Positions 57,979 to 60,964 are shown, counted from the stretch's first letter. The stretch is DNA of 64,000 nucleotides from Candidatus Sungiibacteriota bacterium (GCA_016180435.1 JACPBG010000004.1:134151-198150); one strand, 5' to 3'. Numbers and translations: made by a program. The notes: generated from the letters alone by a model not told the origin.

Positions 57979-58725
57979 TTATATTTCTACACTTATTGGT
58001 AAATGATCAGAACCATACGAATTTAAAAATCTTCGTTTTGAAATAATTTTTGTTATATTGGGAAGTAAAATATAGTCAAGTTGCATAGGAAATTTAAGAA
58101 ATGTTAGTAAGCCCCTAAAGGGATTTTGAAGTTTATTAAGGTCAAAGGTGGCTCTCAAAATCGTTTTTTCGTTAATAAAAAATTCTCTAATTTTGAATCC
58201 AAAATATTTCCACACAAATATATTTATTACCGGATGCCCGAAAGTATTAAGATCCCCACAAACAATATTTTCACGCTGGGGGTTAAAATTCTCAAGAACT
58301 TCACGGAATTGAGACAAACGATGATATGGTCCAGCCACGCACCTAAAATGTACATTGAAAATTCGTAATTTACGTTCGCCTATGTCAATATCAGCATACA
58401 TTGAATCAGCTCTAAAATCCTGATATCTGTCATCTTGTTTTGTGATATCTTCATAGTAATTTTTATGCTTGATAACACCCTTATTTTGAATAGGGGTATT
58501 TGAGATTATTACTGTATACATTCTGTCTGGTTTCTTGCGTGAATTATTGTATACAAGAAATTCTTCTTCAAAATATAAATGCGCTGTCAATAAGTTTAGT
58601 TTCTTTAAGTCTTGAATCGGAAACTCCTGTAGGCAGATAACGTCAAATTTTCCGTTTTTCAAAAACTCAACAGCATCTGGCATTCTTTTATTATCCTTAT
58701 AAATATTCCACGATAAAATTTTCAT
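57979..58725 (-). CDS. Endonuclease/exonuclease/phosphatase (EEP) family protein
   Basis: MKILSWNIYK...FDVICLQEF N-terminal signature and C-terminal SDHLP. Confidence 0.7.
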   Translation of the reverse strand: MKILSWNIYKDNKRMPDAVEFLKNGKFDVICLQEFPIQDLKKLNLLTAHLYFEEEFLVYNNSRKKPDRMYTVIISNTPIQNKGVIKHKNYYEDITKQDDRYQDFRADSMYADIDIGERKLRIFNVHFRCVAGPYHRLSQFREVLENFNPQRENIVCGDLNTFGHPVINIFVWKYFGFKIREFFINEKTILRATFDLNKLQNPFRGLLTFLKFPMQLDYILLPNITKIISKRRFLNSYGSDHLPISVEI

Positions 58726-58737
58726 TTTGTGAGTAGT

Positions 58738-59280
58738 TTAAAATTTTTCCGATTTAATGCCTAAAAAATGGCCGAGAAGATTTACTAAAGGGTGCAAGAT
58801 AGCAAAAAACAGCAGTCCGATAATATATATATCAGGATTAAAAATCATGTAGGTGGAGGTTAAAATAAATGCTCCCAATATCCAGTCTGTTTGATCAAAA
58901 AACCACCATGAATTTCGGGGCGGAATATCCATCTGTCTTTTGAAAAAACTTTTTACACAATCCCCGGCAAGCGCACCGAATCCAAGCAAGAATCCAAGCA
59001 GGATGAAATTTATAGACGCATAATCCAATAGGGCGTAAAAACCTATTTGATGTGCGAAGGTTTTTTCTAAATATACAACTGCGATCGAGGCAATTATTCC
59101 AAAGAAAAAACCCCGCACAGTTTTATGAGAACCAAATATTCTTTTCCCTCTAAAGTTTTTTCCTCCATCTGCAGGAAAATTTAAAAAATTAGTCTTTCGA
59201 ACAAAAACTGGTGTCATATTTGCAACACCCGCAGGAAGAAATAATAAAAATATTCCAACGATCTCATTCAAATAATACAT
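58738..59280 (-). CDS. CarS-like (CDP-archaeol synthase family, DUF46) membrane protein
   Basis: PADGGKNFRGKRIFGSHKTVRGFFFG resembles the CarS D-x-G...GKRI-G-x-KT-RG motif; 5 hydrophobic helices in 180 aa. Confidence 0.45.
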   Translation of the reverse strand: MYYLNEIVGIFLLFLPAGVANMTPVFVRKTNFLNFPADGGKNFRGKRIFGSHKTVRGFFFGIIASIAVVYLEKTFAHQIGFYALLDYASINFILLGFLLGFGALAGDCVKSFFKRQMDIPPRNSWWFFDQTDWILGAFILTSTYMIFNPDIYIIGLLFFAILHPLVNLLGHFLGIKSEKF

Positions 59281-59285
59281 AAATA

Positions 59286-59963
59286 TTATTTTTGACTTTT
59301 AAGTATACTAAAAATTTTTACGCCCCCCGCAACTAATGAAATCGAGGTGAACAATATAAATATAGCGGTGGTCACATTAAAAATATTTATACCACTTAAT
59401 GCCCACAGCATATAAAGCGCGTAAAACAGATATTTACTTCGAAAAACAATGCTCGGTGGAACACCTAATGAATTTTGATATAAGATAAAAACTATAAGTA
59501 GTGAGTAGGTATATACATAAGTCAATCCTAATAAGGAATCGAGCATTGAATAATGAATGACTGTGGCGACAACAATGACCATTCCGGTATGATCGTTAAG
59601 CATGTCGAGGAAGCTACCAGCACGACTTGATTTTCCTGTCGCTCTGGCAAGAGGTCCGTCAACACCATCAAGTAACACATGAGCAAAAAGAAAAATAATT
59701 GAAAACCATGGATTATCAATGAAAAAATAGAAAAAACCACCCAAACTAATAAAACTAACAAAAGTAAGCATATTAGGGCTTATGTGAAGCCAAATAAGCG
59801 GTTTAAGAAAAACCCGCAGTATTTTATCCCGCATCAATCGAAATCGCTCCTGATGTTTTTCTTCTTTCGAAGAAAAGTAATGAAAATTGCCAGTCATATA
59901 ATGATTGTAACATTTTTCCGACTTTAATGACGTTCCGCGCTGCAGAGCAGTGCGGGACGTCAT
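59286..59963 (-). CDS. CDP-alcohol phosphatidyltransferase
   Basis: DGVDGPLARATGKSSRAGSFLDMLNDH matches D-x2-DG-x2-AR-x8-G-x3-D-x3-D. Confidence 0.75.
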   Translation of the reverse strand: MTSRTALQRGTSLKSEKCYNHYMTGNFHYFSSKEEKHQERFRLMRDKILRVFLKPLIWLHISPNMLTFVSFISLGGFFYFFIDNPWFSIIFLFAHVLLDGVDGPLARATGKSSRAGSFLDMLNDHTGMVIVVATVIHYSMLDSLLGLTYVYTYSLLIVFILYQNSLGVPPSIVFRSKYLFYALYMLWALSGINIFNVTTAIFILFTSISLVAGGVKIFSILKSQK

Positions 59964-60090
59964 TAAATTTTATCAATTTTCACGCAGGATTTAAACAATT
60001 AATCAGATCCATTGGCTTATCGTGAAGCGGGTTGACGTATGAGAGTAGAATCACCTTCGCAGGCCTGTGGAAAATTTTTACCCCAAGTTT

Positions 60091-60348
60091 TTAATCGTAA
60101 ATGCTGTGATCGCCTATTGAGTGAAACCAAACAATATCTTTTTCCGTAAATTCAAAAATAATACGATATTTTTGATCCGTACTAAATGCCCAGAATTCTT
60201 TAAGGCGGCCATTTAATTTATGCGTATCAAGACGCGAGTCAAAAGGATTATTTCTAAAAATCTTCTCTTTTTCTTCCGCTAAATCTTTAATGTGCCGAGG
60301 AAGTTTCTTATATTCCCGCTCAAATTTTGAGGAATAGTAAATCTGCAT
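60091..60348 (-). CDS. RelE/ParE-family type II toxin
   Basis: 85 aa, C-terminal ...RIIFEFTEKDIVWFHSIGDH typical of RelE/YoeB fold. Confidence 0.55.
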   Translation of the reverse strand: MQIYYSSKFEREYKKLPRHIKDLAEEKEKIFRNNPFDSRLDTHKLNGRLKEFWAFSTDQKYRIIFEFTEKDIVWFHSIGDHSIYD

Positions 60349-60363
60349 AGCAGAGGCACGCTA

Positions 60364-60579
60364 CTATCTTAAATCCTTTAGCGACCTCAACATCTTTCCC
60401 CCGCCTCTCTGTAATTCTTCTCTGGATTCTTCCAGTTCCGTCGCAAATTTTCCCGCCATCCATAACCGTAAAAGCATACGAAAAAATTCACTTTTAGTGG
60501 AAAAATGTTCTTTCTTTACACTTTTCTCAACTATCCGCGCCATTTTTTCGGGTAATGAAATATTGATAATATTACGCAT
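60364..60579 (-). CDS. Ribbon-helix-helix antitoxin partner
   Basis: MRNIINISLPEKMARIVEKSVKKEHFSTKSEFFRMLLR: RHH (CopG/ParD-like) N-terminus; 15-bp gap to toxin gene. Confidence 0.5.
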   Translation of the reverse strand: MRNIINISLPEKMARIVEKSVKKEHFSTKSEFFRMLLRLWMAGKFATELEESREELQRGGGKMLRSLKDLR

Positions 60580-60799
60580 AATTGGTAAAAAGGTTAGCTG
60601 TAACAACTTATATTACAATATTATTCCTCTGAACATGGCGCTGTCAAGCTCGAGTTTTGGACAAAAAAAGCCGGAGGGGAGAATCCCGCCACCAGAATTT
60701 CGACTGTTGCTTTAGTGACCATTCGGTTCGAAATCCCTTTTTCCCGTATATAAACTTTATCTCGCCAGCTTATTCGAGGCAACCCGAAAAAGTCGAAAT

Positions 60800-60891
60800 T
60801 CGGTGCGGGACAAGTCGAACTCCCGACCTACGTTTATCCCGTTAGAGCCGCCTCGGAGATTTGAACTCCGGACCTACGTTTATCCCGTTAG
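60800..60891. repeat. Tandem duplications (~46-bp unit, ~2 copies) of the 3' half of tRNA-Thr(CGT)
   Basis: gccgcctcggagatttgaactccggacctacgtttatcccgttaga repeated, plus degenerate gtcgaactcccgacctacgtttatcccgttaga. Confidence 0.7.
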
Positions 60892-60964
60892 AGCCGCCTC
60901 GGAGATTTGAACTCCGGACCTACGCGTTACGAATGCGTTGCTCTACCAACTGAGCTAAGGCGGC
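60892..60964 (-). tRNA. tRNA-Thr (anticodon CGT)
   Basis: Minus strand gccgccttagctcagttggtagagcaacgcaTTCGTAAcgcgtaggtccggagttcaaatctccgaggcggct; close to E. coli thrW architecture. Confidence 0.7.

Follow-up and report, generated by a model that had tools for sequence, protein, structure and literature searches.

Putative inverted-repeat cassettes carrying complete tRNA genes, nested within older tRNA genes of a Candidatus Sungbacteria genome

The window analysed here, 64,000 nucleotides of a metagenome-assembled genome of Candidatus Sungbacteria (Parcubacteria, candidate phyla radiation [CPR]), contains an intact tRNA-Thr(CGT) gene with several pieces of tRNA-Thr sequence beside it, a five-gene AT-rich islet lying between this tRNA and prfB, and, beyond ftsE and ftsX, a tRNA-Gln(CTG) gene at 54 kb which is likewise accompanied by pieces of tRNA-Gln sequence. 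The original prediction for this region regarded the tRNA-Thr pieces as tandem duplications of the 3' half, left by serial integrase-mediated insertions at a tRNA attachment (att) site. According to our analysis, the intact tRNA-Thr gene is instead probably carried by a short cassette, which is clamped by an inverted repeat of 15 to 22 bp and sits inside an older gene for the same tRNA, while the islet is a separate matter. The features of the region are collected in Table 1.

Layout of the tRNA-Thr and tRNA-Gln loci

The functional gene of the tRNA-Thr locus, whose discriminator base lies at 60892, is bracketed by clamp arms which lengthen its acceptor stem to 17 to 20 bp, and the resulting 104-nt unit is predicted to fold as a cloverleaf on a long stalk (-55.1 kcal/mol, z = -8.0). 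The motif CCCGTTAGA, which had been noticed in the linker between the tandem pieces and again near the tRNA-Gln gene, does recur: it is present six times in the window, without exception at the tRNA-Thr or the tRNA-Gln locus, against 0.34 copies expected, and none of 100 shuffles reached six. The repeats at the two loci thus belong to one family, as had been suggested, but not to a tRNA-derived one, since the linker is one arm of the clamp inverted repeat. A derivation of the linker from the tRNA D loop was considered and discarded, because TCTAACGG occurs in the D loop of tRNA-Gln but not in that of tRNA-Thr and because the motif also bounds inserts that contain no tRNA.

The tandem repetition of the 3' half holds only in part. 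Tandem Repeats Finder (TRF) reports a period of 46 at 60817-60924 (2.3 copies, 98% matches, score 209), but the third "copy" (60815-60845) has in common with the others only the linker and the first 17 nt, after which it continues as another tRNA allele. Piece B and its linker are perfect copies with GTAGGTC direct repeats at their borders, and a single 46-bp tandem duplication most simply explains this extra copy. Farther downstream, relics A and Z are predicted to form a single T stem (GGGAG/CUCCC) with the third insert in its loop. The inverted-repeat arms of this insert measure 19 to 21 nt, and further copies of its inverted repeat, CCAGAATTTCGAC, were not found beyond chance in the window or in the fetched loci. 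The 5' relic upstream of the intact gene shares its layout with the clear cases L148, L161 and L014 (L numbers denote related loci and contigs). The cassette of the window is 98.9% identical to that of L161 and 97.8% identical to that of L149, and the flanks are unrelated.

At 54 kb, the intact inner tRNA-Gln lies within an outer tRNA-Gln whose two halves are mutually complementary in the T stem and the acceptor stem. The inner gene is a different allele from the outer one, the halves of which match the intact tRNA-Gln of L011, our closest available relative (ftsX 90%, ftsE 92% and prfB 84% identity), and the promoter region upstream of the outer gene is conserved with L011 as well. Since the outer halves equal an intact gene of L011 and its promoter region is kept, sequence comparison indicates that a cassette of the same family entered the T loop of a resident tRNA-Gln in the window lineage and split the gene, and that this insert is lineage-specific. 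An arrangement homologous to the older right arm and 3' relic of this locus follows the tRNA-Gln of L045.

Table 1. Features of the tRNA-Thr locus, the tRNA-Gln locus and the AT-rich islet, with positions counted from the first letter of the window
Feature	Coordinates	Strand	Basis
Left clamp arm GTTCGTCCCGTTAGA, abutting the tRNA 5' end	60965..60979	-	Inverted repeats I5/I6 (22 nt, 91% complementary); motif matches; fold
Degenerate 5' relic of older tRNA-Thr, D-arm-like GCTGAGCTTGGTGAAGCA, end TTCGT (through the anticodon)	60974..61003	-	Sequence reading
Intact inner tRNA-Thr(CGT), functional gene of the cassette	60892..60964	-	Rfam 66.7 bits; ARAGORN 60891-60964; cloverleaf fold
Right clamp arm, copy 1 (with T60892: TCTAACGGGATAAAC)	60878..60891	-	Inverted repeat; motif; fold
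3' piece B, tRNA-Thr positions 41-73, 100% identical to the intact gene	60846..60877	-	blastn 34/34, E 1e-15
Right clamp arm, copy 2 (CTAACGGGATAAAC)	60832..60845	-	Inverted repeat; TRF; motif
3' relic A GTAGGTCGGGAGTTCGA, positions 41-58 of another tRNA-Thr allele (L023/L039 type)	60815..60831	-	blastn 18/18 to L023 tRNA
Third insert, 131 bp, tRNA-less, own inverted repeat (60792-60810, 60684-60704), splitting the T loop of relics A and Z	60684..60814	-	
3' relic Z TTCTCCCCTCCGGCT, T-arm end and acceptor 3' strand of the older allele, then a T run	60669..60683	-	blastn 16/16 to L039 tRNA 58-73
Outer tRNA-Gln 5' part, positions 1-51	54199..54249	-	blastn 51/51 to L011 intact tRNA-Gln, E 1e-26; repeat family D4
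Insert of ~185 bp in the outer tRNA-Gln T loop, bounds CCCGCCCCGTTAGATAC / GTATCTAACGGGGTAAA, holding the inner tRNA-Gln	54014..54198	-	Inverted repeat I3
Intact inner tRNA-Gln(CTG), second cassette of the same inverted-repeat family	54056..54130	-	ARAGORN; Rfam
Outer tRNA-Gln 3' part AATCCAGGTCCCGCAG	53998..54013	-	16/16 identical to L011; pairs with outer 5' part
Older, more degenerate right arm and tRNA-Gln 3' relic, 46 bp from the younger one	53945..53983	-	Repeat family D12, 82%
RHH (CopG-type) antitoxin gene	60364..60606	-	Pfam RHH_1 27.5 bits (cut-off 20.5)
RelE/YafQ-like toxin gene	60091..60348	-	YafQ_toxin 28.6 bits (cut-off 30); weaker HigB and ParE matches
Palindrome, 20-bp stem, between the toxin-antitoxin pair and the lipid operon	59923..59967	.	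Inverted repeat I13; terminator-like match
CDP-alcohol phosphatidyltransferase gene	59286..59963	-	Pfam CDP-OH_P_transf E 1.9e-15
CarS-like / CTP-transferase gene	58738..59280	-	Pfam E 7.6e-25; same operon
Endonuclease/exonuclease/phosphatase-family (EEP) gene	57979..58725	-	Pfam Exo_endo_phos E 7e-10

Cassettes in related genomes and metagenomes

Related loci were retrieved by means of prfB and not by the clamp motif, which makes this set unbiased with respect to the latter, and same-anticodon fragments were searched for within 300 bp of each of the 126 tRNAs that these loci contain. Upstream we found 16 5' parts and one internal piece, without a single 3' part, and downstream 19 3' parts and five internal pieces, without a single 5' part; every relic lies on the strand of its tRNA. 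The tRNAs bearing relics include Thr, Gln, Gly, Val, Arg and Phe, and they amount to 28 of 108 in Sungbacteria-like loci vs 0 of 18 in other lineages, the latter being a small control. Loci with a relic on one side are common. L014 is a clear case: its outer tRNA-Thr, which matches working genes of other species at 100% identity over 25 and 39 nt, is interrupted behind the anticodon, and the break contains CCCGTTAGAAAATAT, a complete and different tRNA-Thr, and CAACATTTCTAACGG. The same role is played by other inverted-repeat families in L021, L037, L042 and L055 (all four with arms ending CCAAnATTTT), in L011 and in L023.

A second sample was drawn from metagenomes by motif, that is, by the left arm followed by a tRNA start within 20 nt, and comprises at least 120 contigs, most of which show the nested layout. 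Among the 122 matches listed, 94 stand before tRNA-Thr (CGT in 55, TGT in 37 and GGT in 2), whereas tRNA-Met, tRNA-Lys and tRNA-Phe account for 3, 4 and 2, respectively, and 19 have no tRNA call, being mostly nested relics or contig ends. The cassette units, with arms in the range given above, measure 88 to 117 bp for tRNA-Thr and about 185 bp for tRNA-Gln, and the window itself holds just two of this family. Five tRNA-less copies with the same arms were found in intergenic positions of four related genomes (L019, L031, L034 and L041); they are AT-rich, promoter-like units of 97 to 113 bp.

To locate the positions at which the outer genes are broken, we mapped a tRNA-Thr profile on the sequences flanking 158 tRNA-Thr genes. 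Of 45 upstream relics, 35 begin at position 1, while 21 end at position 35 and 6 at position 32; of 54 downstream relics, 51 end at 73/74, while 23 begin at 35-38, 8 at 41 and 17 at 19-25. The tRNA-Thr breakpoints are therefore the apices of the anticodon loop (between 35 and 36) and of the D loop, to which the tRNA-Gln of the window adds the T loop. In tRNA numbering the relics join without a gap (1-35 and 36-73), and no segment is consistently duplicated in the tRNAs restored by excision, the junctions being ambiguous by a few bases. Removal of the cassette in silico restores a tRNA recognized by ARAGORN across the junction in 20 of 51 distinct loci, which indicates that the insertions are clean and that many of them are young. 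Cassettes that are 100% identical over 88 to 102 bp occur between flanks of just 76 to 84% identity and with different outer alleles (L135/L190, L135/L206, L140/L218 and L127/L196), and the sequences adjacent to the junctions also differ among loci with identical cassettes.

The two clamp arms covary. Across 42 distinct cassettes, standard pairs occupy 86.7% of the cells of the clamp helix vs 73.4% in shuffles, and the covariation score is 0.378 vs 0.135, a value reached by none of 500 shuffles. The pair at the base of the helix is C-G in 23 cassettes, U-A in 13 and G-C in 4, and the next pair is G.U in 37 of the 42. A wobble pair conserved in a fixed orientation speaks for a structure formed by a single strand of RNA or DNA, and against a pair of protein-binding sites. 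The 4 to 5 nt before the core motif pair, again with G.U, to T(A/G)AA after the right arm; their complementarity to the anticodon stem instead held in L173 and failed in others, and this idea was dropped. For a fixed four-base target as in IS200/IS605 and for a target-site duplication, the left flanks (TTCG, TTTG, TTCA and CTCAG) gave no consistent rule.

We also looked for an autonomous partner element. In about 2 Mb of related DNA, motif pairs 200 to 6000 bp apart enclose ordinary genes only (prfB, ftsEX, murI-like and EF-Ts-like) and no transposase. In viral contigs, the pattern of the inverted-repeat pair gave 19 matches, mostly single-strand chance matches or small unrelated hairpins, and the arm-plus-tRNA pattern gave one; these contigs provide no phage link.

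Some further layouts were observed on the way. At 5182-5400 of L200, a tRNA-Met is arranged as two tandem 5' relics, each followed by CCCGTTAGAAATTA, the intact gene, and one right arm with a 3' relic, which mirrors the tandem 3' pieces of the window; its break lies at the equivalent point (CTCA / TAA). A second clamp family, with GGGATTGCYCTTTGTAGCCAARATTTTSA directly preceding the tRNA, is present in the left flanks of L123, L126, L237 and L021, where a variable hairpin stands in front and its stem changes are compensated across contigs, and in L123 this family is nested within a relic left by the CCCGTTAGA family. In the window, the cluster of tRNA-Leu, tRNA-Thr(GGT) and tRNA-Trp at 43200-44270 is also accompanied by tRNA relics: GCCGATGTAGCTCAGC lies at 43668-43683 directly before tRNA-Thr(GGT), followed by TTGCCCTCCCACCCTT; Leu-like pieces are found at 43405-43660, and arrays of 7-bp TTTAGAA / TCTAAGT units form long hairpins at 43781-43868 and 44053-44185. 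Finally, at 5706-5965 of L118, a tRNA-Thr(GGT) is broken directly after the anticodon by about 190 nt, which match a group I intron weakly and at a score below threshold (18.9 bits, E 0.013).

The AT-rich islet and its variable spacer

The islet differs from its surroundings, as originally estimated by eye. Its GC content is 0.343 over 57979-60606 and 0.33 over 58001-59500, vs about 0.46 on either side, and the GC content at third codon positions (GC3) is 0.27 to 0.38 in its five genes (0.32 for the islet) vs 0.50 to 0.59 in ftsX, ftsE, prfB and the ClpB-like gene; its composition is foreign relative to its neighbours. It is not the sole AT-rich stretch, since the first 14 kb of the window are likewise GC-poor (0.35 to 0.41). 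This second stretch (1-14000, GC3 0.31 to 0.41) carries IspD-like, glycerophosphotransferase/glycosyltransferase, TPP-enzyme and AMP-binding genes and is probably a cell-envelope glycan cluster.

The names previously given to the five islet genes agree with the Pfam assignments for EEP, CarS-like, CDP-OH_P_transf and RHH_1, while the toxin stays under the YafQ cut-off, its matches to YafQ, HigB and ParE all being weak. The genes form two units, the RHH/RelE-like pair and the operon encoding the CDP-OH transferase, the CarS-like protein and EEP, with the palindrome between them. The pair consists of two small co-directional genes, antitoxin first, with a 15-bp gap, as expected of a putative type II toxin-antitoxin module, and the antitoxin gene has a putative promoter near consensus (TTGACA, 16 nt, AATAAT at 60647-60620; 11/12 matches in a promoter scan). 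The module is thus present, but it does not adjoin the tRNA-Thr gene as had been stated, beginning 285 bp away from it. In CPR metagenomes, EEP homologues of 44 to 79% identity lie in several distinct genomic contexts: the one of 79% identity adjoins sugar-nucleotide genes, and in L118 the EEP gene stands alone, directly upstream of tRNA-Thr and prfB. The three-gene operon is kept in other CPR genomes at other places, in one of them between SHMT and topoisomerase I, and looks like a relocating lipid-synthesis operon which is here joined to a toxin-antitoxin pair. The EEP protein is 100% identical to HYT98_04590; exact-protein look-ups with the 149-aa and the 128-aa membrane protein and with the prfB open reading frame (ORF) gave no match.

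The position of the islet is variable among relatives. The order ClpB-like gene, membrane protein, tRNA-Thr, variable stretch, prfB, ftsE, ftsX, tRNA-Gln is kept in L011, L014, L025 and L030, whereas the spacer from tRNA-Thr to prfB ranges from 135 bp to 3.5 kb over 31 related loci and carries different cargo in each. The 135-bp spacer, with the prfB promoter directly after the tRNA, is probably ancestral. The islet is missing from L011 despite the kept flanking synteny, the spacer there holding only a CDP-OH transferase of 28% identity, and the presence/absence polymorphism for which a comparison with relatives had been proposed is thereby found. Judged by eye from their sequences, the spacer ORFs in 17 relatives look like genes for NUDIX, radical SAM, GNAT, peptidase-like, MazG-like, HicB-like and GIY-YIG proteins and a distant CDP-OH transferase. 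The spacer is a true variable hot spot, and to this extent the view of the tRNA locus as an insertion site stands, although the repeats themselves are not integrase scars. No tRNA relic bounds the islet, so its arrival cannot be tied to the cassettes. The islet itself is ordinary: a relocated lipid operon and a toxin-antitoxin pair in a variable spacer.

The assemblies agree on this region, the Logan contigs L004-L006 and L111 being 100% identical to the window. The contig L001 (2880 bp, from nine samples) corresponds exactly to 57820-60699, and its ends might be taken for islet boundaries. We rejected this idea: further contigs of the same strain extend beyond 60699, to 60816 and 60854, and the breaks are therefore assembly-graph effects which are uninformative on the presence or absence of the islet.

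Other observations concern the neighbouring genes. The interval between prfB and ftsE is another variable spot within the same conserved gene row: it is occupied by an insertion of about 4.6 kb in L011 (10999-15632) but by only about 0.5 kb, with a 149-aa ORF, in the window. In prfB (57591-57690, minus strand) the well-known programmed +1 frameshift is present: a short ORF beginning at about 57690 ends in CTT TGA C near 57612, where the main RF2 frame takes over. The N-terminal region of the ClpB-like AAA+ gene contains at 61794-61892 a perfect tandem repeat of 30 bp x 3.3, encoding KGGPPGASLA units. Three intergenic sites upstream of genes (33882-33996, 38648-38762 and 45826-45930) have in common a module of about 115 bp, made up of AATTGTCT x 4.4 and ATTAGGTGA x 3.3 in this order, which may serve as a common regulatory region. 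The ORF of 1265 aa at 50086-53883, situated between the tRNA-Gln locus and the genes upstream, has no Pfam match and is conserved together with ftsX on Logan contigs.

Explanations for the nested layout and their meaning

The reading that we favour, to which we assign a probability of roughly 0.6, is that the clamped tRNA-Thr(CGT) cassette sits inside an older gene of the same tRNA and that the islet, taken jointly with it, is lineage-specific cargo of the hypervariable spacer, separate from the cassettes, with nothing linking its arrival to them or to an integrase. The cassette would be a complete tRNA gene within an inverted repeat of core CCCGTTAGA / TCTAACGGG, and would have entered the anticodon loop of the resident tRNA-Thr between positions 35 and 36, in the same orientation. 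The old gene would thereby have been killed and functionally replaced, with its 5' part now in front of the cassette and its 3' part behind it. The extra 3' copy would have come later, from a single 46-bp tandem duplication between the GTAGGTC repeats, and the third, tRNA-less insert with its own inverted repeat would have entered the T loop of the dead 3' relic. A tRNA-Gln cassette of the same family would have done likewise to the resident tRNA-Gln, in the T loop. The inner gene, presumably without a promoter of its own, may be read from the promoter of the old gene, which would fit the unvarying orientation of the cassettes and the contact of the arms with the tRNA. Once transcribed, the inverted repeat would lengthen the acceptor stem to a long helix and insulate the new tRNA from the homologous relics, and this helix probably guides the release of the tRNA by RNase III and then RNase P and RNase Z.

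The cassettes presumably spread horizontally, for which there are two candidate routes, an enzyme acting on hairpin loops and recombination of incoming DNA via the conserved tRNA arms. The sharp breakpoints, the tRNA-less intergenic members and the separate tRNA-less insert in a dead relic speak for the enzyme, while the cognate targeting, the chimeric relics (L021) and the mismatched outer halves (L130 and L131) speak for recombination. Both routes may be involved, a rare insertion being followed by homologous spread. More tentatively, and with less than even confidence, we propose a hitherto undescribed class of selfish elements: tiny cassettes, defined by a hairpin in a single strand, which carry a complete tRNA gene, insert at a loop apex of a resident gene for the same tRNA, kill it and take over its promoter and its essential role. 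Because loss of such a cassette would also cost the host its tRNA, the cassettes would addict the host by replacement and, by successive overwriting, would cause a horizontal turnover of alleles across the CPR without an integrase.

Several points weigh against the nested-cassette reading. The 5' relic of tRNA-Thr in the window is degenerate, a weak match that would be unconvincing without the clearer cases elsewhere, and the RNA-level role of the clamp helix is one that we infer. Most of the sequences are metagenome assemblies, though the independent Logan assemblies concur; the metagenome sample was selected by motif, which biases its proportions, and the control outside the lineage rests on 18 tRNAs. 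Given the slow evolution of tRNA genes, identical inner tRNAs in diverged genomes may owe something to purifying selection and not just to recent transfer. In the material described above we found neither an enzyme nor a target-site duplication nor an autonomous partner, and transposition is thus a hypothesis.

The alternatives differ in how much of this layout they account for. Integrase elements are well known to leave pile-ups of tRNA 3' pieces, and if such elements, each with a tyrosine integrase, had entered the 3' half of tRNA-Thr serially, displacing the old half each time and leaving the islet as a remnant, then the hypervariable spacer, the foreign composition of the islet and its toxin-antitoxin pair would all be expected. 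What an integrase leaves behind, however, is 3' pieces only, each at the distal end of an element, and att sites yield no 5' relic. Here the pieces lie 0 to 14 nt from the tRNA, all 3' pieces fall within 225 bp of it (60669-60877) and none of the attL/attR type was found near 57700-58000 at the distal end of the islet; 5' relics stand upstream at many loci, a covarying inverted repeat brackets the intact gene, and breakpoints occur in the D and T loops as well. Pfam detected no recombinase domain in the ORFs of at least 150 aa of the 64 kb, islet genes included, and no integrase was apparent in the spacer ORFs of the 17 relatives, read by eye rather than run through Pfam. Because the pieces touch the tRNA, no distal piece was found and 5' relics lie upstream, we reject serial integrase insertion, the explanation put forward in the original prediction, as the source of the repeats, and consider integrative elements a very improbable account of the region. 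Purely local slippage or unequal crossing-over, with nothing inserted, fares no better and has in our view hardly any chance of being right. We accept a tandem duplication for copy B, in view of its 100% identity, the identical linkers and the GTAGGTC bounds, but relics A and Z are of a different tRNA-Thr allele and the outer tRNA-Gln is unlike the inner one and matches L011, and these differences between inner and outer alleles refute local events as a full explanation. Moreover, slippage makes no inverted repeats and no upstream 5' relic, nor can it put identical cassettes into unrelated contigs.

A further rival dispenses with a mobile element altogether: DNA taken up from other CPR cells would recombine via the conserved tRNA, with one homologous and one illegitimate junction, the inverted repeat being the leader and trailer of the donor gene and the cargo of the islet arriving likewise. 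Insertion of Thr into Thr and of Gln into Gln would then need no enzyme, and chimeric relics, such as the 3' relic of L021 with its change of allele within the T arm, outer halves that differ in allele (L130 and L131), the frequent one-sided loci and a hypervariable spacer without an apparent integrase would follow. Against this, the breakpoints are not spread along the tRNA but sharply clustered, in the D loop and between 35 and 36; intergenic inserts without a tRNA (L019, L031, L034 and L041) are bounded by the same inverted repeat, tRNA homology is of no help to a tRNA-less insert with an unrelated inverted repeat in a dead relic, and the sequence next to the junctions varies among loci with identical cassettes. 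We regard this rival as rather unlikely. That the nested layout is itself a working gene, with an intron-like insert and rejoined outer halves, or with a split tRNA, both tRNAs being obtained from one transcript, is suggested by the insertion at loop apices, one of them beside the anticodon, as with introns, by a covarying helix with a kept G.U pair, which suggests RNA, by outer halves that are often restorable in silico, and by the tRNA-Thr(GGT) of a related genome which, on a weak match, seems to hold a group I intron. Against it stand stem-breaking changes in the outer halves (C4 opposite C69 in L014 and two mismatches in L048), the different alleles of the outer halves in L130 and L131, an outer tRNA-Gln in the window whose T loop would lack TTCG, the many truncated relics, the lack of a ribozyme family match in the window region searched (53000-62000), and junctions at which no bulge-helix-bulge motif can be drawn. 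A working split or spliced outer tRNA accordingly appears unlikely on sequence grounds, and we give this whole account almost no credence.

The nested-cassette reading invites comparison with several known systems. tRNA integrative islands, in which a tyrosine integrase uses an att site in the anticodon or T loop (with pile-ups of 3' fragments in Prochlorococcus), have in common with the cassettes the tRNA target, the working tRNA that is kept, the displaced pieces and the adjacent variable cargo. The cassettes, in contrast, carry a whole tRNA rather than a 3' half and leave 5' relics too, no integrase was found, and the unit of about 90 to 185 bp is bracketed by inverted repeats which do not bound the cargo. 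Miniature inverted-repeat elements of bacteria (Correia elements of Neisseria, REPINs) are similarly non-coding units of about 100 bp with terminal inverted repeats and many copies across related genomes, and the cassettes, with such repeats around a short non-coding unit on at least 120 contigs, resemble them in this respect; tRNA-less members bear promoter-like sequences (L019 and L041), and the transcripts could form long hairpins. Unlike miniature elements, the cassettes carry a functional tRNA gene, enter cognate tRNA loops, show no target-site duplication or transposase that we could find, and keep G.U pairs in their arms, which suggests single-strand structure; an autonomous, transposase-bearing relative with the same ends was not found in about 2 Mb of related DNA.

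Intervening sequences (IVSs) of 23S rRNA, for example in Coxiella, are selfish inserts at helix apices with paired ends and a patchy horizontal distribution (PMC4990558), and rRNA genes of the CPR carry insertions as well (PMC11270868). The cassettes are like these in being inserts which would replace the apical loop of a conserved helix with ends that pair, and the CPR context matches: they are found at anticodon-, D- and T-loop apices with duplex ends, according to fold and covariation, and processing by RNase III is putative. A tRNA broken in its anticodon loop cannot work, unlike an rRNA with an IVS, and the cassette supplies a replacement gene, whereas an IVS is cut out of a host RNA which survives. 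In Thermoproteales, transposition of archaeal tRNA introns has been described (Fujishima 2010, as cited in PMC10714607). Archaeal introns and split tRNAs resemble the cassettes in the location of inserts in the D, anticodon and T regions, in helices that join the flanks and in their spread between tRNA genes. The cassettes differ in that the lineage is bacterial, the insert contains a full tRNA, no bulge-helix-bulge was seen at the junctions, and the outer halves decay, are mismatched or belong to different alleles. Group I introns of bacterial tRNAs share the site beside the anticodon and a homing-like spread into cognate genes, but a cassette falls far short of their size and lacks a catalytic core; an Rfam search of 53000-62000 (E up to 1) gave only tRNA matches of note, and tRNAs were the only matches above threshold. 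The cassette shares its logic with each of these systems and departs from each in a defining feature. Full-text literature searches, the coverage of which is incomplete, returned no account of bacterial tRNA genes lying inside other tRNA genes, and a widespread nested tRNA-cassette system in CPR bacteria is apparently undescribed, its novelty being probable rather than proven.

When these lineages are annotated, a tRNA fragment next to a tRNA gene should be taken neither for an integrase att site nor for a sign of a prophage, and the conservation of the clamp helix offers both a search handle for genome surveys and a candidate processing signal. Genes for tRNAs are usually taken as fixed landmarks next to which mobile DNA settles, whereas here an essential gene seems to have been overwritten repeatedly by a cassette of about 90 bp that bears its replacement. 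If this is true, it would constitute a new selfish strategy, in which the cassette becomes indispensable on insertion, and a new route by which the core translation genes of the small CPR genomes turn over horizontally.

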